Positions 5,826 to 36,480 of a stretch of DNA of 41,704 bases are shown piece by piece. Every line of letters begins with the position of its first letter. The first letter of the stretch is position 1. The notes under the pieces are model-generated. The model had not been told where the DNA came from and did not search any database. It worked only from the letters and a program-made list of their open reading frames with translations. The position numbers and the translations under genes are program-made. Source of the DNA: Rhizaria sp. SCN 62-66 (Eukaryota); contig MEDY01000444.1 in NCBI GenBank assembly GCA_001724265.1, positions 1 to 41,704 on the forward strand. The letters run 5' to 3'.

Positions 5826-8158
5826 TTAATCAAAGAGCTTAGGTTTGCTGCCACTCGACGTTTCCTTAGCGCCAACAGGCACGGCGCCGCGCAACAGGCT
5901 TACCGAGCACGTGCTCGTTAAAGACGATAAACCATGGTGTGTCGAGCGGACCCTAGTTAGTGTTATCAAAGGAGACGCAGCTGTTCCCATGTCATACGTT
6001 GCGGACTTGGCTTTCTTTAGGCGCGCAACACTAGGCGCTGTATATTCGCCGTAAACGATATCACTCTCGGGAAGCTGTAAAGATTTTTGGCACACAAGTA
6101 ATTATTTTCATAACTTTCGCGATAGTGATGCATATAAAACGTGACAAGTGGCGGTGTACCTGTTTTTGATTGACCCCTTGGCACAAAACACGTGTGCACC
6201 TCAACTCAAAACATCCTACGACGCACCTCCTTGCGAAAGTGTGCAGTGTTGCAAGGAAACTTTTCGTTATCAAGTCGAATTATGCCGAAACGGGTCGACA
6301 AGTCCTGCTCAGAATCTGAAAAGTGCAGCGATATTGCCACATCTTTGTTTTTGACACTGCTGCGGAGACTGAGTTGCATGAAAAGGCGCGCTTTGGCCTG
6401 CAATATAGCTAAGACAGCTGGAGATAGCGGACCCTCAGTACGACTGGAGATGAGTTCAACGAAATAGGGATACTGACGTACTGAGACCCGCTTAGGGTGT
6501 CCGCTCTTCTCTAAAATGCAGGCGATGTGCCCGTCAAGCTCACTTCTCCAGTGCCAGCGCACTTTTGGCTGCACAAAGCCATGAAGCTCTGCAATAGTTT
6601 GCAGGCGCAGCTGCTATGTTTTGGCTGTGTCAGGTGCAATCACATCCATGCCTGCAAGCAGTGCGCGGAGCTGCGTGAGTTCACGCAGTGCGTCGCCCTC
6701 TTGCGCGCAGTCCTCGTAGCGCAGCAGGTCCAGCACCTGCAGCCCGTGGCAGTCGATGAACTCGGCTACAAACGAGTTCCGTGGCTCAACACCGCGTTCG
6801 CGCAATGAGCAGGCGGGTGAGGTGCTATCAGCACTAATCATGACTCGCAAGACGCGTAGAATACGTGTAATGCCAGCCTGTGCCAAGCCAGCATCTTCTG
6901 CTTCCTGATTGCATGCGTACAACACAACCAGCTTCAGAAATAAGCAACAAAGTCTCACAACACCGCTCACCCGAAGCTTGTGCGCTGCAGAAATAATGTT
7001 AAAAGCTGTGCTCAAAATGTTGTCGCAAAGCGTCATAAAGCTGCTAAGCAACAGCATATACTCCGTGTCATGATCATGATGAGGAGTCATCGCGCAGTAA
7101 ATGGTGTCGACAGTATACTTGAAAAACCGTGAATTCAAGATACGCTGGGCGAATTTGGGAAATTGGACTGCTAAGCGCGCAAGAATACGAAGGAGTGACG
7201 CCGAATCCTAAGATCTAATCTATTCCCATTGACAAGGAGCAATTTGTGTGTGCATTTGGGCAAGCCGATGATCAGTAAAGCCCAGCGCCAGCGCGGTGTC
7301 GTCGAATAAGTCAAGAGCGCGAACAAGCAAGCGCACTATGTCTGCGTAGGTAATCTCTGTCAAAGGCTCGAACTCATCACTGGCAGCAAAATCTGCTATG
7401 TCACCGCGGCGCCGCGCGTTATCTGCGCTGTCGTCTCCGGGGCACGAGAATATAAAGAAAAGAGCATCGTAAGCGATCATTTTGATATCGCGACTGTACG
7501 TGTCAAACGTTTCGTAAGACCTAACGACGTTCCGCAGGAGAGGAGCAAAGGTAAGCACGTCTGAATACGGAAGGCACGATGTTTCAGTAGTCTTGTTACT
7601 AGAGACAAGCGCACGGAGAGTTTTGGTGAGAGCTTTGTGGTAAATAACGCCCTGGTAGGTCGCAAAATGCGTGGGAGCACAAGTTCGTAGCTCCATATCA
7701 CGCATGTGCGCCAGCAAGTGCGTCACAGCATTAAGACGGGCGCGCATGCCAAGGGGAGACTCAATGACAATGTAGTGTACAACCTTGAGAATCTTAGAGG
7801 CGATGCAATAATGGTAGTTCTGGGGAAGATGAAGAAGAGCTTTCATCAGCATCTCGACAACATTGTTTTCAGCGAGGAGATCACTGCCTTTTGCGCAGTC
7901 AGTCACAGCTAGAAAAAAATGAAGCATGTTCTCAAAGTGTGTTGTTGCAGCGCCTGTTCTGTACGCGTCGCTGGCTTGCTCGAGCGACTGCAGAAGAAGC
8001 ATGACAACGCCGCTCTCAACGATGACTTCGATATCACCACCCTCAAACAGCTCGTCTACCGTATCATTAAGCTCCGTCAATGCAGTTTCATCTGTTACTA
8101 AAGCTGTAATCCGGCTCACAGCAACATGGAAACGATACACAGCTTTGTTGTCCTTCAT
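5826..8158 (-). CDS. Divergent armadillo-repeat (importin-alpha-like) protein with in-frame TAGs at 7220-7222, 7208-7210 and 6614-6616. Probable intron 6075-6226; 5' end uncertain
   Basis: ORFs 7220..8209, 6614..7138 and 6206..6574 share one frame and are separated only by TAG. A donor gag|gtgcgt (6226) and acceptor ttacag|ctt (6075) join ORF 5826..6095 in phase 0, ending in TAA. The protein is colinear with the 35047..36480 protein (ERGVEPRNSFVAEFIDCHG vs AEGAQPRNVFLAAFFAAGG). Confidence 0.65.
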
Positions 8159-8915: not shown

Positions 8916-11900
8916 ATGAGCACTGTCCCCCCATCCTCTGGACCGAGGGTATGTATGAAACAAAAATAATGTTCTGAAATAAGAAATTTAGTATATTTTT
9001 GTACTTGAAATTCAGTATTAATGTTCTTATGCGTCTTTTATTTCTCCTTGCTTTGTCGTTCTCAGATCCGGGACAGCACCCGCACCGACAACGGCACTGC
9101 GGTGCTGCTGTCGCGTACCGGGCTGGGCGGGACTGCCAATGAGCCCGCGCTAGTCTCCACTACAACCAAAATCACTGGATCGCACCCGCTGCCGCCCACG
9201 TCGGGGCTGGGCCGCGGCGGCGACGACCTCAAGTTCGATGACGCAGACGGCGACTACAGCGCCGCCCTGGCCCCTGTGCGTCTGCCGGCCGTGCCCAAGA
9301 CGCTCCCCGCGGTCCGCACCGCGCCGGTGCCTTCGGCGGCGGCTGTGCTGGAACACGCAGAGCGCCCCACAGCGCGCGACCGCTCGCACTCGCCCGCGCC
9401 GCTGAGCGTCACGGCCCCGGGCTCGCTAGACCGCGCGCCGGACCGCGGGACCTTCACGGCCACGATGCCGCGCGGCGTGTTCTCGCCCGCGCCCGTGGCA
9501 ATGCAGCCCTCGGCGGCGCCCGGCGCGCTGCAGCCGCCGTCGCTGGAGCGCGCGGCGGCCCGCGCGACGGAGCTGCTGTCGCCGCAGGAGCTGGAGCAGC
9601 GCGCGCAGCTGCGTTTCCAGCGCGACGTAGCGGAGCGCGCGCGCGAGGCCGCTGCCGAGGGCCGCCGCAGCGCCGTGCTGCCCGTGGGCGCCTCTTCGCG
9701 CGGCGTCTCGGACCCCTTCGCGGCGGCAGGCGGCGGCGCCGTCACGCGATCTTGGGGTGGCGACCGCGCGATGGTGCCGGCAGACTCGGCCTACTCTGGC
9801 GGACCAAAGGAGAGCGTTGCGCGCTCCTGGGCGCACCATAGTGAGGACGCGGGGGCTGCGGCGCCGAGCGGACGGCCCGGCACAATCGTAAGCACGAGCA
9901 CTGCAACTGTGATGACCAAGGGCGCCAAGCCAGTGCCGGTTTCGGCGACGGTGTCCACGGTCACCGAGCCCTTCCGGCCCCAGAGCGAGGACGCGTACAT
10001 CTCGAAGAACGCGCCGTCGCTCGGCGGCACTGCCGCGCTCGACGGCGGCTTCCAGCGCCTCAGCCAGCAGCATGACAAGCACGACAAGTACGACGCCGAC
10101 AGGAGCAAGAGCTCTGGCGGACTGATGAGCTGGTTGTGGGGCGGAGGCGGCGGCGGCGGCGCGCGCGCGGGCCGCGAGAAGAGCGACGCCGACTACAGCG
10201 CCGACGGCATCGGCACTAGCACGCGGCTGGCTGTCGCGCCCGCCAGCGCGCGCGCCACGTCCTCCGCCGCCGCCGCAGCGGCCGCGGCTGCGGCGGCCGA
10301 GGCCAGTCTGGCTGAGCACGAGCGTTGGCGTCAGCAGCAGGAGCTCGGCCGGCTTGAGCAGCACCAGTACTATCAGCAGCAGCAACAGCTCCAGCACCAG
10401 CAGCAACAGCAACATCAACAGCAACAGATGCAGCAGCAGCAACAGTGGCAGCAGGAGCAGCACAAACAGTTGCGGCGCGAACTGCAGCAGCGCCAGAGCC
10501 ACCGCGCCGAGCAAGAGCAACGCGCGCGCACCGCGAGCCTCCCTGTGCCACCGGGCAGCTCCGAGGCTGAGATTGCGAGCGACCAGCGAGAGAACTCGTG
10601 GATCTGGCAGTATCGCGAGCAGGCGGGCTACGGCCACCACTCCGGCGACGCTGTCGCTGACGGCGACCGCGAGCGTGAGCGCGAGCGTGAGAGCGAGCGC
10701 GAGCGCGAGCCGAGCGCGCTGCAGCGGGCGGTGCAGACGCTGAGCGGCAAGCACCGCGAGCAGAAGCGCGAGCGCGCCGGCTGGATGGGCTACTTAAACA
10801 CGCAGGCGGACTACGAAGACAGCGACACACTGCAGCGGCGCACGCACACTGAACAGCAGCAGCAACAAGAGCAACCGCGTCAGCAGCAACAGGAGCAGCA
10901 GTACCGTGACAACAAGGCTGCCGCCGAGGCCGGCGCGCGTTACGAGCAGGGGACGCAGCCGTTTTACTTCAAACAGCAAGAACGCGAGCTGCTGCGCCAA
11001 GAGCAAATGCAGCAGCAGCAACAGCAGCAGCAGCAGCAGCAGTCGTCGTTGCAGCGGACGCGGCAACAGCAGCACGGCTCGAGTTTCGACGGCTACGGGA
11101 GCTACTTTGGCTGGCGCGGCCCGGGCCCCGCAAACGAGGGCGCGGATCCACCGTACGGCCTCTCCGAGTCGCAGCTGGGCACGCTGACGCCGGAGCAGCT
11201 GCATGACATGGCGCATGGCAGCCACGAGGCGCGCCCGCGCTGGGTGAAGCTGGCGACCGGACACGGGCACGCAGACGGGCATGTCGGCGAGGTCCACGTC
11301 GATGTGCAGAACCTCTTTCCGCCCGGCTCGACGCGCGGACGCGCGCTGCCGCTGACGCTGCTGGACCGGCTGGCTGAGGCGTCGCCCGCGGAGCCCTGGT
11401 TTGACGACGGCACGGGGCTCTTCGCGGACACCACGTCAGTGTTGGAGCGGCTGACGGCGGCCCGCACGCGCGCGGCCGAGGTGTCCGCCGAGGGTGAGGT
11501 GCAACTCGAGCAGAGCCAGAACCGCGGGCTCGCGCCCAATGAGGTCGGGCCTGCCCGCATGCGCCGCTCGGAGCCCGCGGCCGCGCGGCAGATGGCGCTG
11601 GCGCAGTCGCAGGAAGACCTGGACCAGGCCGTGCGCGCGGTGCGGCGGGCGGCGCTGGCGACTTACGCGGGCGGCGCCCCGGGGCTCGAGACGCTGGGGC
11701 TGCTGGAGAAGCCCGTGCGCTCGATCAAGGTGCGCGACGTGGCGGCCGTGCTCGCGGAGCTGCCGCAGGGCGCGGTGCCCGAGCTGGCCGCGCTGGCCGC
11801 GATGCTGAGGGAGGACGAGCTGCCCGCGCCCGACGTCGCCGTCCGCGCGGCGGCCGCGGCGGGGCGCGCGTTCGGCACCCGGCACGCGGGCGCGCAGGGC

Positions 11901-14900
11901 GGCAGCGGCATCGGCCACGCTGAGGACGGCGCAGACACCATGAGCAACTACATCGCCGCAAACGTGCTTAAGCAAGGCGCGCGCGCCAGCGACAGCGCAA
12001 GTGCCGGCGAATACAAGAGCGACACGCGTGACACTCGTGACACGAGTAGCATGCGTGACAGGAGCAGCAGCCTTGGCGAGACGGTCGCAGGCGCGGCGCG
12101 CAGCGTCAGCAGCGCGGTGGGCAACGTCGGCAACGCAGTAGGCAACGCAACGGACATGGCGCGGCGCGAGCTCGAGTTGCGCTGGGACCAGGACCGCGCG
12201 ACGTGGGAGCAGTTTCAGCGCGAGCGCGAGCGCCAGCGCCTCAGCGCGCAGCGGCCTGACTTCACCGAGGACCAGACGCTCGACTTGCGGGACCGTGAGC
12301 GTCGTGATCGCGATGGCTCAGTGCGCAGTCAAGACCAGACACGGAGCCAGGGCGCGCTGCAGCTGTGGGAGCAAGGCGAACAGCAGTGGGTCGACGGCGC
12401 GCCCGTGCCTTTCACACGGCCGCCACCCAGCAGCAGCAGCAGCGCTGCGCAGAGCTCGCACCGCGACTCGGGAGATCCCAGTCTGAGCCACCGCCACCCG
12501 CACGGGCTGTTGGAGCGCATCAGCGACACGGTGAGTGGCGCCGCGGGCGCCATCAAGGATACCGCCGCCGGCGCCGCGGCCGTGTTGCTCGGCACCGAGC
12601 CCGTCGCAAGCAAGGTCGACGCCCACTCCAAGGCCGGCGAGTCCAAGGCTGGCGAGGTTGTAGGCGACGCGGCGCGCGCGGTCAAGAGCGCGGCCAAGGA
12701 CGCCGCGGGCGCCGTCAAGGATACCGTCAAGGACGCAGTCAGCGGCAGCCCGCTCGCCGAGGTCGCGGACGATGTCAAGAGCGCCGCCAAGTCGGTTGCG
12801 CGCGACGCCAAGAGCGCTGTATCCGACGCCGTCGGCGGTGCGGCGCAGACCGTAAAGCACGCAGCTCAGGACGCCGCGGGCGCAGTCAAGAGCGCGGTCA
12901 CCGACGCCGCCGATAGTGGCGGAGAGTCTCTGAGTGAGATGGCCAGCGATGCGATCGACAGCGCCAAAGCCACTGCCAAGAGCTTTGGAAAGAGCGTCGG
13001 CAAGGCTATCGGCCTCGGCGGCGGCAGCAACACGGCGGCGGACGCAGTGGGCTCTGCCGTTGACGCCGCTAATGGCGCCGCTAAGGGCGTTGCTAGGGAC
13101 GCGTCGCGCGCGGTTAAGGGCGCCGCCGCGGCCGTAACAGACGCAGTGGGCAACGCAGTGAGCGATAATGAGGACGCGCTGGCCGATGCGCGTGATGCCG
13201 TGTCCGACGTGGCGGCCGCGGTGACCGACGCTGCGGGCACGGCAACGCGCTCGCTCTCTGCCGCGGCACGCGGGGCCGCCGAGGCGCTAGCGCCCGCGCA
13301 TAAGGACGAGGGCTACTTGGCGGGGCTCTGGCGTAGCGCGCGCGAGAAGACCGAGGACGCGGTGGCCGACGTAGCCGCGGGCTCCGCCGGCCGCCGCGCC
13401 GCGCGCGAGCTGCAGGAGCAGGCGCGCGACGTGGCTACAGCGCTTAAGACCGCTGTCGGCGAGGCCGCGCAGTCGCCCGAGGGTCAGGCGGCGGCGCGCG
13501 AGGTGGCTGCAGCCGCCAAGGAGGTTGCGGGGGCTGTGCGCGAAGCCGCGTCGGCGTTCTCGCAGTCTGCGGGCGCCGCCGCGGGGGCTGCCGCGCCCGC
13601 GCTGGCCGCCGCGGCCGGGGAGGTTGCCCGCGGCGTCACCGCCATGACTGCGGCCGCAAAGGACGCCGCTAAGGACGTCGCCGCGGATGCCGCGCGCGAG
13701 GGTGCGGGCGCGGTTGCCGCTGCGGCTCGCGAGGGCGCGGCGGCGGTCAAGGAGGGCGCGGCGGCCGTGGGGGCTGGGGTGGCGCGCGCGGCCGACCGGG
13801 CGACCGCAGCCGCGGGCGACGCGGCGCGTGCGGTGCCCAGTGACGCGCGTATTAGGGACAGCGTGGAGGAGGCCAAGCGCAGCATCGGGCACCGCGTGCG
13901 TGAGTGGCTCTCGTTCAAGCGGCCCAAGGACGCCGGCGACAAAGGCAGGGACAGCGTCATCATGCGCGACAAGGGCACCGCCGTGACGGGCGCGATCGCA
14001 GACGCCGGCGCCGCCGCCAAGGAGGCTCTGGCCGACGCGGGCAAGAGCGTCAAGAGCGTGGCCCGCGACGTAGCAGACACTGTCACCCGTAGCGGCGGCG
14101 GCGGCGACGGCAGTCGCGCCGGTGAGAGGATTTCCGAGTCCGTCAAGGACACAGTCAAGGACGCCGCCGGCGCCGCTAAGGAGGCTGCCAAGGACGTCGC
14201 GGGCGCCGCCAAGGACGCCGTCAAAGACACGGCCCGCGGGCTTGCGCGCGACGCCAAGGGCGCCATGGCCGACGCCAAAGCCGCTGTGGCAGACTCAGCC
14301 GCCGCGGTGGCCGACCGGGCCAAGGGCGCCGTGGTCAGCGCGGCTGATACAGTTGCGAGGGACGTTAAGCAGGCCGCCGGCGCAGTCGCGGGCGAGGCCA
14401 AGGGCGCGGTGCAGAGCGCGGCGCGCTCGGTGGCCGACAGCATCGACACGCACAGCCACTTCCACAACCAGCTGCCGCAGCATCAACACGGCCAGCAGCC
14501 GCCGCAGCAGCAGCAGCGCCGCATCAGCGGCAACATGGGCGTGCGCGAGGACTACAGCGATGAGAAGGCGTACCTCGACGAGTACCGACACAACTTCCGG
14601 GGCGACTCCTACTTCCCACCCGAGGGCCCCGGCGCCGCGCCCGCGGGGGCACACAAGGTTGGGCTCTGGGAGCGTGTGCGACACCCCTTCGTCGGGGGCG
14701 GACACGCCGCCAAGCCCGCGCACGATACCAGCGCCACTGCAGCGGCGGCGGCAGCGGGCGCGGCGGCCGCGGCTGCCTCGTACAACGCCGACACGGCCAC
14801 TATGCGCGCGCAACAGCAACAGCAACAGTTACAGCAACAGCAGCAGCGGTTCGGCAGCGGTCACTACGGCTTCAACGCGTCTGACCAGGCGGCCGAGCGC

Positions 14901-15575
14901 GCCGAGTCCGCGTTGGCGACCGGCGCGGCCCCGCTGCCCGCGACGGCCTCAGCGGCGCTGGCCCGCGAGGCGCGGCTGGAGGACCTGGTTTCCGCCACGG
15001 CGGCCGGCTTCGACTTCGAGCCCGGAGACGCGGTGCCCGCGGGTGCGGCGGCGCGCGGCCAGGACCCGGGCTTCGCGGCCAGCAAGGCGGGACGCCACGG
15101 CATGCAGGAGGCGCTGGCCCGGGACGCGCCCGCGGCGGCGCCGCATGTGGCATTCCGGCTGGACGAAAGCGCGCCGCTCGAGGGCGTGCAGGCGCTGCGG
15201 CCGGAGCCCGTGGCCGTGCTGCGCGTGCGCGCGCCCAAGGCGAGCCAGGCCTCGCTGGGGCTGGCGCTGCTGACGTTGCCGGGCGCCGTGCGCGCGCGCC
15301 TCGCCTCGCCAGCCCCCGCCTCGCCTCATAGTAGTGGCGGGGACGGCAGCACAAGCTCCGAGGGCAGCGCACGCAGGGCCTGGCTCGAGGCGCGTCGCGG
15401 CGGCGCTGGTGGGGTCACCGACGGGGAGTCCGACAGCGACCCTCAGCTCAGCGACTGCGTCCACGATTATCAGGCGCAACAGCAGCAGGGGCAGCAGAAC
15501 AAGTGGAGCGATGACGATGACTATGACAACGGGGGCTCGCTGTCTGTGCGCTCAGCGGGACGCTTCGAGTGGTGA
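8916..15575 (+). CDS. Giant (~2180 aa) hydrophilic protein with polyQ tracts and an extended LEA group-3-like 11-mer amphipathic repeat region. Exons 8916-8948 and 9066-15575
   Basis: First exon MSTVPPSSGPR|gtatgt splices in phase 0 to ctcag|atc (9065/9066) of the 2184-aa ORF. Repeats include VKDAAGAAKEA AKDVAGAAKDA VKDTARGLARD AKGAMADAKAA. Stop is TGA. Confidence 0.75.
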
Positions 15576-17854: not shown

Positions 17855-17990
17855 CAGAAAAATACACATTGTCTGCAACTGGCGCAATATATGCCGCATT
17901 ATACTTGTAAATATGGGCTCTGATGCCTCCATTGCGAGGCACGGACCGAAAAATTTATGGCTCACTTTTTGGTCGCGCTTGCTATTTGTT
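17855..17990 (+). repeat. Left inverted repeat (~135 bp)
   Basis: Blocks cagaaaaatacacattgt / tctgcaactggcgcaatatatgc / tacttgtaaatatgggctctgatgcctc / tgcgaggcacggac / ggctcactttttggtcgcg recur in reverse-complement form, with few mismatches and in mirror order, at 22527-22753. Confidence 0.85.
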
Positions 17991-18370: not shown

Positions 18371-19991
18371 ATGGCAAAGACAACGCTCTGGCCGTGCGCG
18401 CCCGCTCGCCTCATCGACGCAAGCAACAGCGCTGCATGCAGCTCTGCTTCGGGCCCTCGTGCCCGCCCCTCCCCGGCGTCGAGCTTGGCAAAGCCCGCGG
18501 TCGCCAAGCCTGCGGCGGCGGCGGTTGCCACTACTGCCACCATCGCTGCAAAGGCACAGTACAAGACCAAAAGCACTAAGTCCGCTGCGGCCTTTGCTAT
18601 CGCCGCATCTGTCACCGGGTGGATCCTGGTTACAGGAAGCTCCAAGAAGAGCCAAGCTCAAGTGAAGAAGCGTTGCCTCGACGCTGTTGAGGCTGACGCG
18701 GTCGCTAAGGCGACCGCTGAGAGCAACGCGGAGGCCGCGAAGGTCAAGTACCGCGAGGTGCTGCGCGCAGCCGAGCTGGAGAAAGCTACTCGTCAACAGC
18801 TGCACCTTGCTGCCGAGAGGAAATTCGCGGCCGCCCGTGCCAAGAAGCGCGAGAAGATGGTACGAACTAGACACGTTCTCAATGACATGGAATCCATCGT
18901 GAACAGTTGAACATCGTTTACCGTATTGTGTCTAAATTTAGAATAACATGTACGACTTTTGTTTGAAAGAGGACACCATTGAAGCATTGTCCATATGCCG
19001 TTTAACTCATTTCTGTTTTTGTCGTTTGTTCTCCTCCTTTTTCGCCCGTGTCGTGTCTGCGCTTCTTTTTTTTCTCCGTCTCTTTCCACACACATTCGTT
19101 ATTTCCCTCTTTCTTTTCTACGTTCTATCTTTTACGCATTATTAGGCTCTTAAGCGTGCCATTACGCGCAGCCTCGCAGATGGCAACGTGAAGGCATCTG
19201 TGCCCTTTACCAGCGTTGCCCCTGGCAAGGCTGCTGCCACCACCCTCGTTGGCTCCGTCGCCGTCTCTGTTGGCTCCGCCGCCGTCGCCACCACCGCCAT
19301 CGCCGTTACTGGTGCCGATTCTACGGGTGCTGCAACTGCTAATGGTTCGGTCATTGGCGCCTCCACCACTGGTGGTGGTGTGCTCTTGGCTGGCGCTTCC
19401 AAGCGCGCGATCAAAGCGCCGACACCGTTGGCCGTCAAGCTGCCGGCCAAGGCGCGAGCTGACCGGGCAGTCGAGGCGCGTCGCCGCGCTGGAATCTGGG
19501 CATTGCTGCGCACGCTTCCGCGCCCGGTGTACGGCTGGAGGCTCAAGGCGGGCCTGGAGCGCCTGGCGCGCCTGCGTGCCCAGGCAGAGAAACGCAACGC
19601 ACGTGTTCATACAATGCGCATCATGCCATGCAAGTCCGTGAGGGGGTTGTCTGCGTCGTATTCAAGCGGGCATACTTGCCCCTCTTCGACATCCACACTG
19701 ACCATGGACGCAGACGCTGTTATTACCACTGCCAGCCTTGGCGCCGGGCTGCGGCCTGTTTCACCCACTGGATCTGCTCCTAGCCGGAGCTGCGGTAAGC
19801 GCAAGTTGCCGGATCCAAATCCATCCGGTGCCGACAAAAAAAGTCGGCCTGCGCCGGTCACCCACGGGCGCGTTGGTGACAAAAACAATGACGATGAAGA
19901 CGGCGATGATGGTGGCAGTGGCGGCGACGACGGTGATGATGGAGACGAGGAGGACCACGGCAACGGTGGCGACGACGATGAGGACAATTGA
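18371..19991 (+). CDS. N-terminal part of the element gene: basic/Ala-rich coiled coil and acidic tract. Exons 18371-18859 and 19146-19991; probably continues into the downstream frame via a +1 shift at ~19989
   Basis: atg|gtacga (18860) to attag|gct (19145) joins KKREKM to ALKRAITRS in phase 0 across a pyrimidine-rich intron. The Asp/Glu tract runs up to AAT-TGA and resumes one base later. Confidence 0.55.
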
Positions 19992-22488
19992 CGAGGATGA
20001 AGACGAGGATGACGAGGATGAGGACGGGGTCGAGGACGAGTGTGTCGTAATCACCACTGTCACGGTCGCTGTCAGTCGGCCCGTCATTTCAGGTCCTGTC
20101 CGCACTGCAACTGATGATTCTGCGTCTGGTTCAGACTCGGTAATCGAGCTACTGTTCGACTCGGGGGAGGAATCCACGCCTGCCGCCGATGGACGTGTTT
20201 GCGCTCACAGCCGCACGGGGCCTGGTCAGGTCACGACCCTTGCCGCCCACCAGCCATCTGCTCACAGTCATGACCCGCAAGCCCATGCCCGCGGTCACAC
20301 AGGCGATGCTCACGGTCACAGTGAATGTGCACACGGCCACGGTCAGCATGCTCACCGTCACGACCTGCAAGCACACGCCTACAGTCACACTGCCCCCTCA
20401 TCAACTCGTAGCCACGACACAGCGTCGTTTGCAACGTCAAGCTCTCTGAGTCCCGTTGTGGCTAACGGTCGTTTTACGTCCTCGGTCTCTGCACCCGGTC
20501 CCGTCGCTCCCGTTGCCTCAGCTACGGCCCGCGGCTCGAGTGCTGTATCTATGAGCGGTCACAACGGGGACTTTACAACCAACGACAACTCTGGCGACGA
20601 GGACCGTGGTCTCGCTAGCCCGGTGAATTTTAATGCGTTATTGTCGGCTCACCTCGCGAAGGCCGCAGCCGCAGCCGCAAGACAAGTCGCGGGCACATGT
20701 GCAGGTGCACGTCAAGGCGCAGGAGCAGTCCAAGGCACCGCGGCTGGGAATGCGCAACGGGCAGGTCGCGCTGGTGGTCCCACTTTTGATTCACACGTCC
20801 GCTCCAAACAGTGGAGCACTCGTAACCAAGACCAGCCGAGTCAGCTGCGGCTCACCGCCGAGGTCAAGCGCTGGTTCAGGTGTGACGCATGTCCACACGA
20901 GTTTGAGGCGGCGGTATACAGCATCGCACGCGGGTCATGGTGCCCTTTTTGCGCAAGCAAGCGGCTCTGTGACGACGAGACCTGCCGGTTCTGCTTCGAC
21001 CGAAGTTTCGCCTCGCACGATCGCGCCAAACTGTGGAGCACTCGTAACCCGGTCCAGCCGCGGCAGGTAGCGCGCGGTGCCCGCGCTTTTTTCTGGTTCA
21101 GCTGCGACTCCTGTGGGCATGAGTTTCAGTCAAAGCTGAGCAAGGTCTCGAGTGGGTCGTGGTGCAAATACTGTGCTGGGCTTGCGCTCTGTGACGATGA
21201 CAACTGTCAGACCTGCCTCGACCGAAGTTTCGCCTCGCACGAACGCGCCCTACAGTGGAGCACTCGGAACCAGGTCCAGCCGCGGCAGTTAGCGTTGCAT
21301 TCCGGGACTAAGCACTGGTTCAAGTGCGACAAGTGTAGTCACTAGTTTGATGCGATTATATGCAATGTTGTGCGCGGGCAGTGGTGTCGGTACTGCGCTG
21401 GACTAGCGCGCTGCCCAGACGACTGTCAGACTTGCTTTGACCGAAGTTTCGCCGCGAACCCCCGCTCACGACATTGGAGCACTCGTAACCAGGTCCAGCC
21501 GTGGCAGGTAGCGCGCGGTTCGGCGATGAGGTGCTGGTTCGACTGCGATGATTGTCATCACTAGTTTGATGCGGAACTGAGGGAAGTCACGCTTGGCCAA
21601 TGGTGTCCGTTTTGCCGCGGTTACCGACTCTGCGACGCCGCCGACTGCGATTTCTGTTTCAATCGCAGTTTTGCCTGTCACCGCCGTTCGAAGCAGTGGA
21701 GCAGTCGTAACGTGGACCAGCCACGGCAGCTTTCACTCTACGCCAATATCAAACGATGGTTTCGCTGTGACAAGTGTGATCACTAGTTCGAATCGGACCT
21801 GGGCCACGTCGCAAGTGGGTCATGGTGCAAATACTGTGCTGGGCTGGAGATCTGCGGCGCTCGAGCTTGTCAACCGTGCTTTCAACGGTCGTTTGCCGGA
21901 GGACCGTACGCGTTGCACTGGTCGGCTCGTAACCCCGTCGAAGCGCACACCGTCAGGATTTCTAACTCCAGCGAGATGTATGAGTTTGTTTGCGACAACA
22001 ATCATAGGTTTAGGGCAACTCCCCATGGGATCACCTACATGCGCTCGTGGTGCCCTCAGTGCAGGCGCACAACAGCGGCCATGCTTTGCACATTCCTAAC
22101 TGAGTGTGGTTTCAAGCCCGAGTCAGAGAAGATGTTCCCCTTCTCCGGCAGGGCACGCTATGATTTTTACATCGAAGATCACAATATCGTCGTCGAGCTT
22201 GACGGCGCACAGCACCACGTTGCGGTCCCTCACTTCAACCGTGACCGCACACTCGAAGATATCCAGAGGATTGACAGCTTAAAAGAGCATGATCTCACTT
22301 CCAACGGAATCCGGTACGTGCGCATCGTACAGGAGTGTGTGCGCGCCAACATCGGCGAATGGAAGCGTACCCTGCGCGACTATATCACCGGCAGTGAGTC
22401 TGGACACACTCTGGTGTCGTCCCAATACCGCCACCTCCGTGCTCTCACCGAGAAGGTCCAATCGGATGAGGAATTTCGCCATTTTTAA
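19990..22488 (+). CDS. Zinc-ribbon (DUF4379-like) tandem-repeat protein with a C-terminal Vsr/DUF559-like PD-(D/E)xK endonuclease. In-frame TAGs at 21343, 21562 and 21784; stop TAA
   Basis: Five full and one partial ~74-aa repeats of WSxRN...WFxCDxCxH-x-F...G-x-WCxxC...CDDxxCxxCFDRSFA, followed by RYDFYIEDHNIVVELDGAQHH...D.LK...NGIRYVRI. ORFs 19738..21345, 21370..21564 and 21913..22488 are all in one frame, broken only by TAG. Confidence 0.85.
20782..22065 (+). repeat. Coding tandem repeat with a ~222-nt unit (zinc-ribbon modules)
   Basis: The middle codon of the H-x-F motif lies at 20899 (GAG), 21121 (GAG), 21343 (TAG), 21562 (TAG), 21784 (TAG) and 22006 (AGG). Spacings are 222, 222, 219, 222 and 222 nt. 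Confidence 0.9.
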
Positions 22489-22526: not shown

Positions 22527-22753
22527 AACAAGTAACCAAACGCGACCAAAGAGTGAGCCTGTAATTTTTGCAGTCCGTGCCTCGCACTCCCTCCTGATGA
22601 GGCATCAGAGCCCATATTTACAAGTACAATATATATATATATTCTTGTACTTGTAAATATGGGCTATGATGCCTCACCATGTACAATGCGGCAGACAGCA
22701 TATATTGCGCCAGTTGCAGACAACAACCCAAGTTAACAATGTGTATTTTTCTG
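22527..22753 (-). repeat. Right inverted repeat with internal insertions and a 32-bp-arm hairpin (22598-22676)
   Basis: Reverse complement of 17855-17990 with several insertions. The hairpin arms tgaggcatcagagcccatatttacaagtacaa and ttgtacttgtaaatatgggctatgatgcctca (1 mismatch) flank a (TA)n loop. Confidence 0.85.
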
Positions 22754-23493: not shown

Positions 23494-24297
23494 ATGGACA
23501 ACAAGGCCGCCCCCCCGCAGTACAGTGCTCCCCCCCAGGGTCACACCGCGCCCCCCCAGCAACAGGGCTACCCCGCGCCCCAGCAGTACCCCCAGCAGGG
23601 CTACGCGCCCCAGCAGCAGCCTCAGGGCTACGCGCCGCCGCCGCAGCAGCCGCAGCAGCAGCAGCAGCAGCAGCCGCCGCCGCAGCAGCAGCAGCAGGGT
23701 TACGCGCCCCAGCAGCAGCAGGGCTACCCTCCCCAGCAGCAGCAGCAGTACCCGCAGCAGTACCCGCAGCAGTACCCCCAGCAGGGCTACCCCCAGCAGC
23801 AGGGCTACCCGCAGCAGCAGCAGGTCGTTGTACAGACGGCGATGGTCCCCATGTACGCTCCCAACCCGTACGCCACCCAGCAGCTCTGGAAGAAGATCAT
23901 GACGAGCGAGTTCTGCGGCTGCTGCAGCGAGTGCGGCGCGTGCTGCATGGTGTTTTGCGGCTTCGGCTGCTGCCTCTTTGGCAGCACCTACAACCTCTCG
24001 GACCAAGGGCCGTGTATAATCGGAACTTGCTGTTACCCGTGTCTTTGTGGATGTTCCCGGTCGCACATCCAGCGCACGCTGGGCGTTCCCGACGACGGGT
24101 GCTGCATCGGCTGCCTGCTGCACATGTTCTGCCACCTCTGCGCGCTCGTGCAGGAGTCCCGCGCGGTCGGGCAGTGGTTCCTCGCCGGGAAGCCGCTGCC
24201 GCAGGCGCCCGTGCCGACCGGGCTCGCCATGGTGTCTACGTCGCAGCCCGTGGGCCAGCCCATGCAGCACAGCCAGTCCGGCTCCATGGCCCAGTAA
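23494..24297 (+). CDS. PLAC8-family Cys-rich protein with a Gln/Pro/Tyr-rich (GYPPQQ) N-terminus, 267 aa
   Basis: FCGCCSECGACCMVFCGFGCCLFG...RSHIQRTLGVPDDGCCIGCLLHMFCHLCALVQESR matches the PLAC8 pattern (CxxCALxQE). Stop is TAA. Confidence 0.85.
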   Translation: MDNKAAPPQYSAPPQGHTAPPQQQGYPAPQQYPQQGYAPQQQPQGYAPPPQQPQQQQQQQPPPQQQQQGYAPQQQQGYPPQQQQQYPQQYPQQYPQQGYPQQQGYPQQQQVVVQTAMVPMYAPNPYATQQLWKKIMTSEFCGCCSECGACCMVFCGFGCCLFGSTYNLSDQGPCIIGTCCYPCLCGCSRSHIQRTLGVPDDGCCIGCLLHMFCHLCALVQESRAVGQWFLAGKPLPQAPVPTGLAMVSTSQPVGQPMQHSQSGSMAQ

Positions 24298-25285: not shown

Positions 25286-26360
25286 TTACTGTTTTGGTGG
25301 CGGCGGGGCTGGGTACTGTTGCTGATGTTGAGGCGGGGACGTGTACGGCTGTGGCTGCTGCTGGTGTGGCTGTTGAGACGGCTGCTGAAACTGTTGCTGA
25401 GGATACGGTGAAGCAGGAGGTGCCATCTGCATCTGCTGCGGCATCGGCTGCTGCGCTTGTGCATACACGTACTGCTGCTGCAGCTGCTGCTGTTGCTGCT
25501 GCTGGACAAGATACGACGTCCCGTCGCGGGGCATGCTCGCGATCAAGGTGGCCGCGGAGGCCTTCATAGCCTTCTGCTGTTGCTCCCACATCACCGTCCA
25601 CTCGCTCTTGCGCCACGAGTCGACCAGCTCCTCGTCCGTGGCCGCCTGCTGCGCCAGCCACTGGCTGTGCGTGTGCGCGTGCGCCGCGAACGCCGCGTCG
25701 CGCGCGCGCTTGAGCCCGCGCTTGAGCTCCTGGCCGTCGCGCAGCAGCCGCTGGTAGGCCTGCCAGTGCGTGTCCGCCTGCGCGCCCGTCGCGGGCGGCG
25801 TCGTCACGCGCGGCTTGCCCAGCTTGGTCCAGCGCTCCACGGCGATGCTCTCCTGCGCCAGTGCACAGCTGTAGCAGCAGAGGTGGTAGCCGCACGCGAA
25901 GAGCAGGTTGTCCTGCTCCGCATTAAGCGTCTTCTGGATGGAGATGCGCGAAATGCCACAGAGTAGTGGGTAGAAGAGAGTGCCCAGCAGGCAGTTGCCC
26001 TGCTCCGAGTCGTCGAAGGTGACGCCGAAGACCATGCAGGGGCACAGACACGAGAGAATGCACGGGTCGGTGTTTTCGCAGAGGTCGCTCCACAGGTCAG
26101 CAGTGAATGCGGGCAGCAGCAGGCGCCGGTCGTTGTACATGCGGTCCGCGATCTGCTGCAGCGGCGCAGAGGCGCCCGGGTCGCCCACGTTAACGAGGTA
26201 GCGGCCGTCGCCGATCGGGGAGATGCCGAAGGGCGCCATGGTGGGCGCCGGGGAGAGCAGGCCGCTGCCGGGCAGGGGTGCGGCGGGGACTGGGCTCGCA
26301 GGCATCGCGCTGACGGGAGCAGCGTACTGCATGGCGCCGGGCTGCATCATAGGCTGCTGC

Positions 26361-26392
<32 letters not shown>

Positions 26393-26536
26393 AGGTGGGT
26401 GCTGCTGCTGAGGCGGGTGCTGGTAGTATTGAGGGTCTTGATACTGCTGCGGCGGCGACACATATCCAGTGCGTGTTTCGCCATACGTTGGCGGTGTGGT
26501 AGAAGGATGGCCAAACACGGAGGGGTCCTGACTCAT
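25286..26536 (-). CDS. PLAC8-family protein with Gln/Pro-rich termini, 416 aa
   Basis: LWSDLCENTDPCILSCLCPCMVFG...RISIQKTLNAEQDNLLFACGYHLCCYSCALAQES. ATG at 26536 follows an acceptor-like caacag. Stop is TAA. Confidence 0.85.
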
Positions 26537-27201
26537 TCTGTTGTATAGAAATAATACACGGAGATTATTACGTGTGTGTGAGTGAACAAGAACGTGACAA
26601 CAAAGGAGGAGAGTTTCACATGAGTGGAGCGGTCCATCTAGGATTTTGAAGTGGATTTTTGACATCATAAACAATGTGCAGTAGATGACACGTTTTAATA
26701 TAGAAATCATTTCACAATTAAAAACTAAATTAACATCGTTTCACTCAGATTGACGATCATTTGACACCACACATTTCTTTCAATTTGGCCTCGCCCCCCC
26801 ATCAAGCCACCACCGCCCTCGTCATAAACGACCTCTCCAGATCCTGATTTGCATCTCTGCGTCGCACTAACGCAGCGGTGGGCATTAAACATGTGCAGCA
26901 GTATATTATTCATGTTTCATCTAGGCTAACATTGGCATGTTATCTCTCCGGAGCATTTATTCAAGTGTTGTATTCCTACACCAAACTTTGCTCACTCAAG
27001 TGTCCTTGCTCAAAGTCACAATTGATTCAGCTTACAGAAGCCCCAAACACGAATACACAAAAAACACGGTACACAAAAGCAAAATAATCCATACTATTGA
27101 CTAAATATCTTTCATACGCGCAACAACAACACCAGCAACAAAGACTCTTCTTCATAGTAGCTAATTGCAAGTGTACACGCAACATCCTGCTGCCTTGATG
27201 C

Positions 27202-35046: not shown

Positions 35047-36480
35047 TCACGTGCTTATGTCGCCAACAATATCGATCACACACTTGTTTAGACTTGCCAC
35101 GTCAGCGTTCTTCGATTTAGTCCTCGCAAGAGCGTCGCGGCCGCCCGCCGCAAAGAACGCCGCCAGAAACACGTTGCGCGGCTGTGCGCCCTCGGCCTGC
35201 ACCGCTGGGTCGGCGCCCGTATCGCCGCACTGGACCATGAGTTGCACCGCCTTACAGATCCTGGCGGGCGGCATGTCAATCGCGCCCGCGGCAATGGCGA
35301 GGATAAGGGCGTAGTAGCGGAGCACGCCGGCGTCGAGCAGCATCTGCGCCCGGGCCAGCCGGGCCTGCGGGGTCAGGGCCCTGGCCAGAAGCTCAGTCGT
35401 GATCGCGGACAGCGGTGTCGTCACTTGATAGCCGATGAAGTCGTTGCTGATGGAGCCTCGCGTCATCTCGGCCAGGCGCATAATCGCCGTCTGCAGCACG
35501 TTTGACTCAAGCACACGCGCCTCCATTTCGGGGCCCTTAGCCACGAGATGCGAGAGCATGTCGACCAGGTCGAAGAGCGCGTAGATCACCATGTATTCCA
35601 GCGACGCTGCGAGCCGCTGCAGTCTCGCCAGCACGTCCGGCGTGAACACGAGCGCGGCCTTGTCACCACGGTACTGCGCCATGCGGCGGCATAGACGTTG
35701 TGCAGGCATGTGCGTCGCGGACTTGACATGAAGGTGCGAGACAACGCAGCGAATGACGCTGTTTTCGCCGCCGCTGACGAGGTCTGCGAAGCTGCCATCA
35801 TCACGATCGAAGTTGAAGATCAGCGTTAGGGAGTTTGTCGCATTGATGAGCGCGTCCCGGAGATCGGGAAAGCCTTGGAAGTGCCGCAGCGCAAATGCTA
35901 GATGCGGCACCATGGGCGCCACGACGCAGTAGGTCAGCTGTGACGTCAACCGAGTCGTAAGTCCGTCGTGCATGACCGCCGAGAGCGTTGTGATCACCTT
36001 GGGGTCCACAGACGCAAACCTCTGGTACACAGCGCCCATGTAGGCGTATAAGTGCGCAAGGATGCCTCGCTGGACGATTGCGTCGATTGGCGCGCGCTCA
36101 TTTTCGACGATGCTGTTGAGAGCCTTGAGCGCGGCAATCACAACGGCGTCGGGCGTGTCAAGGCAAACCATGCTGCAGAGCTTCTCAGCAACGCCGTGCT
36201 CAAGCAGCACGCCAGCGGACAGCGAGGCAAGATCTTCAATCGCTTTCACGGCTTCCCTGTGACGCTTTTCTTTGTCCGCGTCTGCTGTGAGATCGAATGA
36301 ACGCAAGAGCGTGTCAATCACGCCGTGGTCGAGACATGCCTCAGTGAGCGCCTCAGTCTTTTCTGTATCTCGAGTATATGACATCCACCGCAGCCTTTGA
36401 ACTCCGCCCAGCGACTCTGAAAGCTCCATCAATTCCGCAACAGCCCCATGAAATGATTCGTAGTCGAGCTGGTCGGACAT
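35047..36480 (-). CDS. Intronless divergent armadillo-repeat protein, importin-alpha-like but lacking the IBB domain, 477 aa
   Basis: ARM-like helices (LLEHGVAEKLCSMV, ALKALNSIV..., AIVQRGILAHL, LLDAGVLRYY). The C-terminus CGD...RNVFLAAFFAAGGRDALA...N..VA....VIDIV resembles the atypical last ARM of importin-alpha. Stop is TGA. Confidence 0.7.
   Translation of the reverse strand: MSDQLDYESFHGAVAELMELSESLGGVQRLRWMSYTRDTEKTEALTEACLDHGVIDTLLRSFDLTADADKEKRHREAVKAIEDLASLSAGVLLEHGVAEKLCSMVCLDTPDAVVIAALKALNSIVENERAPIDAIVQRGILAHLYAYMGAVYQRFASVDPKVITTLSAVMHDGLTTRLTSQLTYCVVAPMVPHLAFALRHFQGFPDLRDALINATNSLTLIFNFDRDDGSFADLVSGGENSVIRCVVSHLHVKSATHMPAQRLCRRMAQYRGDKAALVFTPDVLARLQRLAASLEYMVIYALFDLVDMLSHLVAKGPEMEARVLESNVLQTAIMRLAEMTRGSISNDFIGYQVTTPLSAITTELLARALTPQARLARAQMLLDAGVLRYYALILAIAAGAIDMPPARICKAVQLMVQCGDTGADPAVQAEGAQPRNVFLAAFFAAGGRDALARTKSKNADVASLNKCVIDIVGDIST

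Follow-up and report, generated by a model that had tools for sequence, protein, structure and literature searches.

In-frame TAG codons in a zinc-ribbon nuclease gene point to a nuclear code in which UAG is probably read as glutamate, with UAA and UGA as stops

How can a gene stay conserved on both sides of three in-frame stop codons? The question is raised by the window that we analyzed, the whole of contig MEDY01000444.1 (41,704 nucleotides) of the assembly Rhizaria sp. SCN 62-66 (GCA_001724265.1), in which a gene on the plus strand encodes a row of zinc-ribbon repeats followed by a nuclease domain. A first-pass annotation had noticed TAG codons at the identical position, H-TAG-F, of repeats 3, 4, and 5, and we verified them at positions 21343 to 21345 (TAG 1), 21562 to 21564 (TAG 2), and 21784 to 21786 (TAG 3). 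Their contexts are CSH*FDA, CHH*FDA, and CDH*FES, respectively. The same motif reads CAC/CAT GAG TTT in repeats 1 and 2 and NNHRFRA, with an AGG codon, in repeat 6. With TAG read as sense, the frame is open from 19702 to a TAA at 22486 to 22488, and the full translation contains six zinc-ribbon repeats and a C-terminal DUF559 domain. The annotation had suggested that UAG is decoded as sense, and this now appears nearly certain, given an in-frame TAG in the gene for the release factor eRF1, TAGs in other conserved domains, no TAG among the likely gene ends called at a strict threshold, and a tRNA with a CUA anticodon. That UAG specifies glutamate, with UAA and UGA as the stops, is in our judgment likely.

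The zinc-ribbon region begins with repeats 1 and 2 (20812 to 21255; DUF4379 plus a CxxC spacer, H-GAG-F) and continues with repeats 3 to 5 (21256 to 21918), the first of which carries the probable Glu codon TAG 1. Repeat 6 is a shorter terminal zinc ribbon with H-AGG-F (21919 to 22071), and it is followed by a Vsr/DUF559-type PD-(D/E)XK nuclease domain (YDF...ELDG.QH) and the TAA stop (22072 to 22488). The DUF4379 profile PF14311 matched five stretches of the readthrough product (E = 1e-38), and the nuclease domain matched PF04480 with an E value of 2e-4 (21.7 bits; cut-off, 20.6). A structure model of the nuclease domain has a predicted local distance difference test score of 85, and its top Foldseek match is Escherichia coli Vsr (1vsr; E = 8e-5); a sequence search of the PDB with this domain gave no match. 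The Vsr-fold domain has D..F and E-x-D-G-x-x-H motifs, and the D, E, D, and G that are invariant in the nuclease family are all kept. The six zinc ribbons presumably bind DNA and the Vsr-fold domain may be an active nuclease.

The ratio of nonsynonymous to synonymous substitution rates (dN/dS) among the repeats was 0.27 to 0.64 for the 9 of 10 pairs for which it could be computed. For repeats 4 and 5, which lie wholly 3' of TAG 1, dS was 2.0 and dN was 0.55, and the ratio of 0.27 downstream of the first TAG is not near 1. Across repeats 1 to 5, 25 of the 74 positions are invariant, and repeats 4 and 5 differ synonymously at 12 of the 25. The possibility that the three TAGs are intronic or are splice acceptors was ruled out because the repeats are collinear at 222, 219, and 222 nucleotides. 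The three TAGs probably go back to one mutation that spread by repeat duplication or conversion, not to three independent events. If they have a single origin, the TAG would have outlasted about one synonymous change per site under purifying selection, barring recent conversion. In 119 homologues with 516 repeats, the residue at H-x-[FWY] is most often E (176), as expected for a glutamate codon, but the column is variable, with S in 92, D in 86, T in 51, and Q in 9. Because of this variability and the probable shared origin, the TAG trio is not the strongest single piece of evidence that it had been taken to be; position 107 of eRF1, stop usage, and the tRNA are stronger.

Under the standard code, the TAGs would have to be nonsense mutations, in a gene of viral origin undergoing decay, or else errors of assembly or DNA damage. 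The nuclease gene is of giant-virus type and single-copy (one locus in the assembly), the window has a frame break upstream of the repeats, and nonsense mutation in GC-rich genes most readily yields TAG, all of which would suit such an explanation. However, the same stops occur in other assemblies, where the frame break is absent. Two proteins from other public assemblies, P0050 (2 contigs) and P0363 (3 contigs), terminate at the same CSH, that is, at TAG 1, so that other assemblies have the first stop as well. The frame break lies at about 19989, where P0050 matches the window over 122 amino acids in the upstream frame and over 451 amino acids in the downstream frame. Since P0050 and P0363 both run unbroken across this point, the break probably reflects an indel made in assembly, or an allele. 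The statement that the gene has no other stops or frameshifts thus holds for the repeats and the nuclease but not for the low-complexity N-terminal part. The dN/dS of 0.27 also argues against decay, and the standard code would leave both the stop-usage skew and the CUA tRNA described below without explanation. We regard this explanation as highly improbable and as largely refuted already.

Is TAG found inside other genes? The eukaryotic assembly that contains the window (G000; 34.9 Mb, 714 contigs) was scanned with thirteen families besides DUF4379, and the context of stops inside Pfam matches was inspected; the matches left uninspected were a TGA-bearing HSP90 (G000:C101), a TGA-bearing kinase (C118), and an intron-spanning kinase (C77). 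Ten exonic TAGs lie in Pfam matches, namely, those to eRF1, six kinases, the SUV3 helicase, a Ras-like GTPase, and a ubiquitin fusion. All 17 TAA and TGA codons inspected inside such matches are intronic. Eighteen further TAGs were dropped as intron acceptors or intronic, and raw counts had overstated the signal. An additional TAG site, in UBC6, came from a coding-model scan. Among the top 50 candidates for each codon, a set that is kinase-enriched and not a random sample, a Pfam stretch runs across the codon in six cases for TAG and in none for TGA or TAA. Exonic TAG was not found in scans of the ABC, AAA, kinesin, DEAD, and EF-hand families, and a comparison of dynein paralogues gave no usable exonic site, its matches resembling intron edges (two confirmed). 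One kinase family with a C-terminal helical region (L071, L072, and L073; G000:C148, C49, and C9) is unusually rich in TAG, with four exonic sites in three genes. A long open reading frame with an internal repeat and a ubiquitin domain (L150 1 to 2088; G000:C681) has two in-frame TAGs, both opposite Gln in a related copy; its C-terminal segment resembles what we take to be an intramolecular chaperone domain, with the motif GFIAEE.

We then asked which codons end genes. A codon-position Markov model was applied to about 840 kb of assembly DNA, and a gene end was called where a stop followed coding sequence and preceded noncoding sequence without a donor-like motif before it. At a strict threshold, likely gene ends were TAA in 39 cases, TGA in 31, and TAG in none (n = 70, with 36 donor-like cases set aside). 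At a looser threshold, the counts were 50, 48, and 1, respectively (53 set aside). TAG accounts for 205 of 1,066 stop triplets in the flanks (19%), which gives a binomial p of 3e-7 for 0 of 70 ends. TAA terminates the genes for HSP90, GRP94, eRF1, and the ubiquitins. Codons with coding signal on both sides comprised 4,537 GAG, 473 GAA, 9 TAG, 0 TAA, and 0 TGA. From the stop usage and these coding-context counts, we conclude that UAG in this genome is a sense codon, although a very rare one, and not a stop. The two genes of the window that contain TAGs have GC contents at third codon positions of 0.65 and 0.53, versus 0.85 to 0.87 in typical genes. Programmed readthrough specific to the nuclease gene, with nested isoforms, had been offered as an alternative to a sense codon, and it is not favored because TAG is not in ordinary stop use across the genome.

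A single eRF1 gene was found in the assembly, two other matches looking like pelota. The codon of this gene that corresponds to human Glu107 is an in-frame TAG (L064; G000:C63:103370-103699, minus strand), and the column in 117 homologues holds E in 106, D in 10, V in 1, and Q in none. Under the standard code, the only eRF1 of the organism would be truncated at residue 106. A separately assembled metagenome contig (L205), which may share the sample of origin, is identical across the exon with the TAG. The eRF1 gene is otherwise strongly GC-biased, yet it carries a TAG in its own coding sequence. Three changes were observed in the N domain: T32S and G57S, at positions with T and G in 117 of 117 homologues, and T58K, at a position conserved in 116 of 117. 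E55, NIKS, L69, S70, and YxCxxxF are kept. The G of UAG is contacted by T32, which in Iotanema is replaced by Gly (PMC5304391). In yeast eRF1, E107A reduced readthrough, whereas L69A increased it, most strongly at UAG (PMC4381064). We infer that termination at UAG has been lost: eRF1 would have lost most of its ability to recognize UAG, and UAG would have disappeared from gene ends.

A pattern search found one gene for a tRNA with a CUA anticodon (L137 1489 to 1561, minus strand; G000:C84), which scores 58 bits with Rfam. In one pattern search, no tRNA with a UUA or UCA anticodon was found. Over 73 positions, the CUA tRNA shares 47 with tRNA-Glu(CUC), 40 with tRNA-Glu(UUC), 39 with tRNA-Asp, 33 with tRNA-Gln(CUG), and 29 with tRNA-Gln(UUG), so that tRNA-Glu(CUC) is the closest of the tRNAs compared. 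It has the same UCCCA/UGGGA acceptor helix (first five pairs) as both tRNA-Glu isoacceptors and the T-stem of tRNA-Glu(CUC). Its variable arm is short, whereas those of the Ser and Leu tRNAs in this organism are long. The identity to tRNA-Glu(CUC) is only moderate, which suggests an old derivative of tRNA-Glu and not a fresh anticodon mutation. Such a tRNA would presumably be charged with Glu and would read UAG.

Which residue, then, does UAG encode? Pfam scores summed over the ten sites were 605.9 bits for E, 602.0 for Q, 600.8 for K, 598.9 for D, 595.0 for S, 586.3 for Y, 583.0 for L, and 580.5 for W. Leu, Trp, and Tyr are excluded by these scores, with Leu 22.9 bits below Glu; Ser is 10.9 bits below. 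Tyr had come into question through two Y columns in a paralogue alignment at 23% identity, but it scores 19.6 bits below E, and the CUA tRNA does not have the C1:G72/A73 found in tRNA-Tyr of this organism. The scores favor Glu over Gln modestly. We prefer Glu because of position 107 of eRF1, the H-x-F column, the GAG codons of repeats 1 and 2, and the tRNA.

Several points weigh against the proposed code, and the first group concerns the residue. The lead of E over Q is only 3.9 bits, and a single kinase contributes 2.4 of them; its nearest solved relatives (KSR) have Ser at the site. TAG stands opposite Gln codons (CAG/CAA) in close paralogues at three sites, with paralogue Q for the ubiquitin fusion and for a kinase-associated helical region, and two TAGs lie within poly-Q tracts. 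At other kinase sites, the paralogues have D (one site), D or Q (another), and E or T (two), and solved homologues of UBC6 and SUV3 have D or S. A reading of UAG as Gln, known from Iotanema, Hartmannula, and Trochilia, or as another residue such as Ser would have some support: Q is second in the profile scores, and Ser is opposite TAG in KSR, UBE2J2, and one Suv3. However, Q occurs in 0 of 117 homologues at eRF1 position 107 and in 9 of 516 repeats at H-x-F, a site occupied by GAG in repeats 1 and 2. The CUA tRNA resembles tRNA-Glu, matches the Gln tRNAs least, and is without the long variable arm of Ser and Leu tRNAs. In addition, CAG to TAG is a transition and would be expected at tolerant sites whichever residue is inserted. 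Gln or another residue is thus very unlikely.

The second group of points concerns whether UAG is fully a sense codon. The internal excess of TAG over TAA and TGA is weak by itself, because 73% of one-step nonsense routes in these GC-rich genes end in TAG (0.73^9 = 0.06). TAG makes up only 9 of the 5,019 Glu-type codons in clearly coding context, and so the sample of sites is small. Human eRF1 with T32S terminates largely as normal at all three stops in vitro (PMC3632111). The eRF1 of P0126, which is 85% identical, has V at 107 and keeps T32; it has T58K in common with the organism, and its G57 is unchanged. The organism of P0126, a metagenome protein, may represent an earlier stage of the code change.

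UAG might be ambiguous, with partial termination by eRF1 and a suppressor tRNA giving nested zinc-finger-only and nuclease-bearing products, as a genome-wide form of the readthrough mentioned above. The avoidance of the codon in highly biased genes (the same 9 of 5,019), the single CUA tRNA gene compared with 8 copies of tRNA-Glu(CUC), the neutrality of T32S in human eRF1, and the intact E55, NIKS, and YxCxxxF would all agree with this. However, 0 of 70 gene ends use TAG, although a GC-rich genome should favor it. Three leaky stops in series would leave little full-length protein, and yet the downstream repeats and the nuclease are conserved. Programmed readthrough typically has a C-rich 3' context, whereas each of the three TAGs is followed by U. 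Ambiguous decoding is thus distinctly unlikely.

The proposed code, with UAG as glutamate and UAA and UGA as stops, would account for the locus as follows. UAG would persist as a very rare Glu codon, commonest where codon bias is weak. A silent GAG-to-TAG change in one repeat of the nuclease gene would have been copied into repeats 3 to 5, and the product would be a single full-length protein with six zinc ribbons and a Vsr-fold nuclease. A further possibility, which we think unlikely, is that the organism is midway in codon capture, with UAG purged as a stop and barely used as sense, and that the UAG in the eRF1 mRNA is a feedback switch. In that case, abundant eRF1 would cause residual termination at UAG and less eRF1 would be made. 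The frameshift in bacterial RF2 is an analogous autoregulation. The chance of a TAG in an eRF1-sized gene at the background rate is a few percent, which is suggestive of autoregulation but not proof.

Apart from displaying the probable UAG reassignment, the nuclease with its zinc ribbons is unremarkable for the giant-virus-type family to which it belongs. Named homologues are found in Insectomime virus (AHA45956.1), Cannes 8 virus (AGV01494.1), Terrestrivirus (AYV76646.1), and Hyperionvirus (AYV84624.1); the labels "restriction endonuclease" and "very-short-patch-repair endonuclease" on homologues are database annotations. Like these proteins, the window protein has tandem 74-residue DUF4379 repeats and then a DUF559/Vsr-fold nuclease, with 30 to 40% identity over most of the length. 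The N-terminal loop of its nuclease is shorter than in the giant-virus proteins. Unlike the giant-virus genes, the window gene is nuclear, single-copy, and apparently spliced, and it encodes a long low-complexity N terminus. Exon 1 (18371 to 18859, Ala/Lys-rich) is predicted from an ATG at 18371 in an open frame and a phase 0 GTACG donor at 18860. It is followed by a predicted spliceosomal intron (18860 to 19145) with GTACG, a pyrimidine-rich stretch, and a TAG acceptor. The 5' part of exon 2 (19146 to 20811) encodes the low-complexity extension, which includes the frame break. The neighbors in the window are Sec10, two PLAC8, EF-hand, and WD40 genes, and the setting is not viral or proviral. 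The zinc ribbons and nuclease may have come from giant viruses, or be shared with them, and would have been fused to an N terminus of host origin. The accessible part of a giant-virus catalogue (PMC13524828) describes alternative codes in sludge-derived viruses, and this code is not among them. A palindromic short element at 22580 to 22680 and a related sequence at 17880 to 17945 flank the nuclease gene region.

The window has a second TAG-bearing gene, on the minus strand (6206 to 8158), that encodes a helical protein without a Pfam hit and ends in TGA. It has no internal stop besides three TAGs (7220 to 7222, 7208 to 7210, and 6614 to 6616). A paralogue at 35047 to 36480 (minus strand), which is also helical and without a Pfam hit, has no TAG, and the similarity between the two spans the first two TAGs (23% identity, E = 2e-8). 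Other features are a 2,184-codon open reading frame at 9021 to 15575 (plus strand) that has long repeats rich in Ala, Asp, and Lys but is without a Pfam hit, and a convergent pair of PLAC8-domain genes at 23494 to 24297 (plus strand) and 25286 to 26710 (minus strand) with P/Q/Y-rich N termini. GC content is high in coding regions and lower in spacers and introns.

What is the host? At least half of the sampled locus words were present in four public runs from three studies; runs with small shares of the words were set aside. For three of the four a source is recorded, in each case a bioreactor or wastewater metagenome, and one of these may itself be the source of the window DNA. A poly(A) activated-sludge run contained 0.31 of the locus words, which indicates presence and at most partial expression. 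HSP90 is 65 to 71% identical to its best matches. Three of the five named protist matches that were looked up are rhizarian (Mataza, Leptophrys, and Lapot), the others being Euplotes and Ploeotia, and in an HSP90 tree the query grouped with no named lineage; eRF1 and the small-subunit rRNA did not place the host either. A very divergent small-subunit rRNA gene with four group I introns (L147 1501 to 5945; G000:C706) may belong to another organism, as the assembly is binned; its first intron has an open reading frame with a His-Cys-rich, homing-endonuclease-like motif. The ubiquitin genes (L148, L149, and L155; G000:C3 and C651) encode monomers that start with MSMQIFVK and end in GGHPQ or GGHSQ, and polyubiquitin was not found in the assembly. 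The MSMQIFVK start resembles what we presume to be the cercozoan polyubiquitin insertion. Many dynein heavy chains suggest a flagellate; Rosculus vilicus differs, with 37.7% GC and no flagella (PMC10770858). Our guess is that the host is a divergent rhizarian.

Very few nuclear codes treat UAA and UAG differently, the two being nearly always reassigned together. If correct, the present case would be a new split code in a GC-rich protist for which both the suppressor tRNA gene and the altered eRF1 are known. It would open to test which eRF1 changes lose UAG but keep UAA, and whether a code changes by codon capture or through an ambiguous stage. Standard gene calling shortens the proteins of this organism, as in P0050 and P0363, which break off at TAG 1. 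A natural eukaryotic amber-Glu tRNA together with an eRF1 weak on UAG would also be relevant to genetic-code expansion.

Nuclear reassignments of UAG alone are described for the rhizarian exLh (Leu) and Iotanema spirale (Gln) (PMC5304391), and for phyllopharyngean ciliates (Leu, but Gln in Hartmannula and Trochilia), Scotinosphaera (Ser), and Protocruzia tuzeti (Gln) (PMC11687900). As in those codes, UAG is sense here, UAA and UGA are stops, in-frame UAGs occur at conserved sites, though few of them, in unrelated genes, and there is a cognate CUA tRNA, which cannot wobble onto UAA. T32 of eRF1 is changed as in Iotanema (T32G there, T32S here), whereas exLh has L69A and our organism keeps L69 with T32S, G57S, and T58K. 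UAG is found in 78 to 91% of phyllopharyngean genes but makes up about 0.2% of Glu-type codons here, where coding regions are GC-rich. The proposed residue also differs, since the UAG-only codes described use Leu, Gln, or Ser. Glutamate is known for UAR in peritrich ciliates and in Blastocrithidia, where UAR is Glu or stop and UGA is Trp (PMC10553269, PMC5304391), and for UAG in Oligohymenophorea sp. PL0344, where UAA is Lys (PMC10553269). No report of UAG as Glu with UAA as a stop was found in the accessible parts of the literature searched, most subscription journals being outside its scope. PL0344 likewise has tRNA-Glu-like CUA tRNAs. However, in all three of these systems UAA is a sense codon too, whereas here it is the commonest stop and none was exonic in the inspected matches. 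The combination of UAG as glutamate with UAA and UGA as stops is probably new as a nuclear code.

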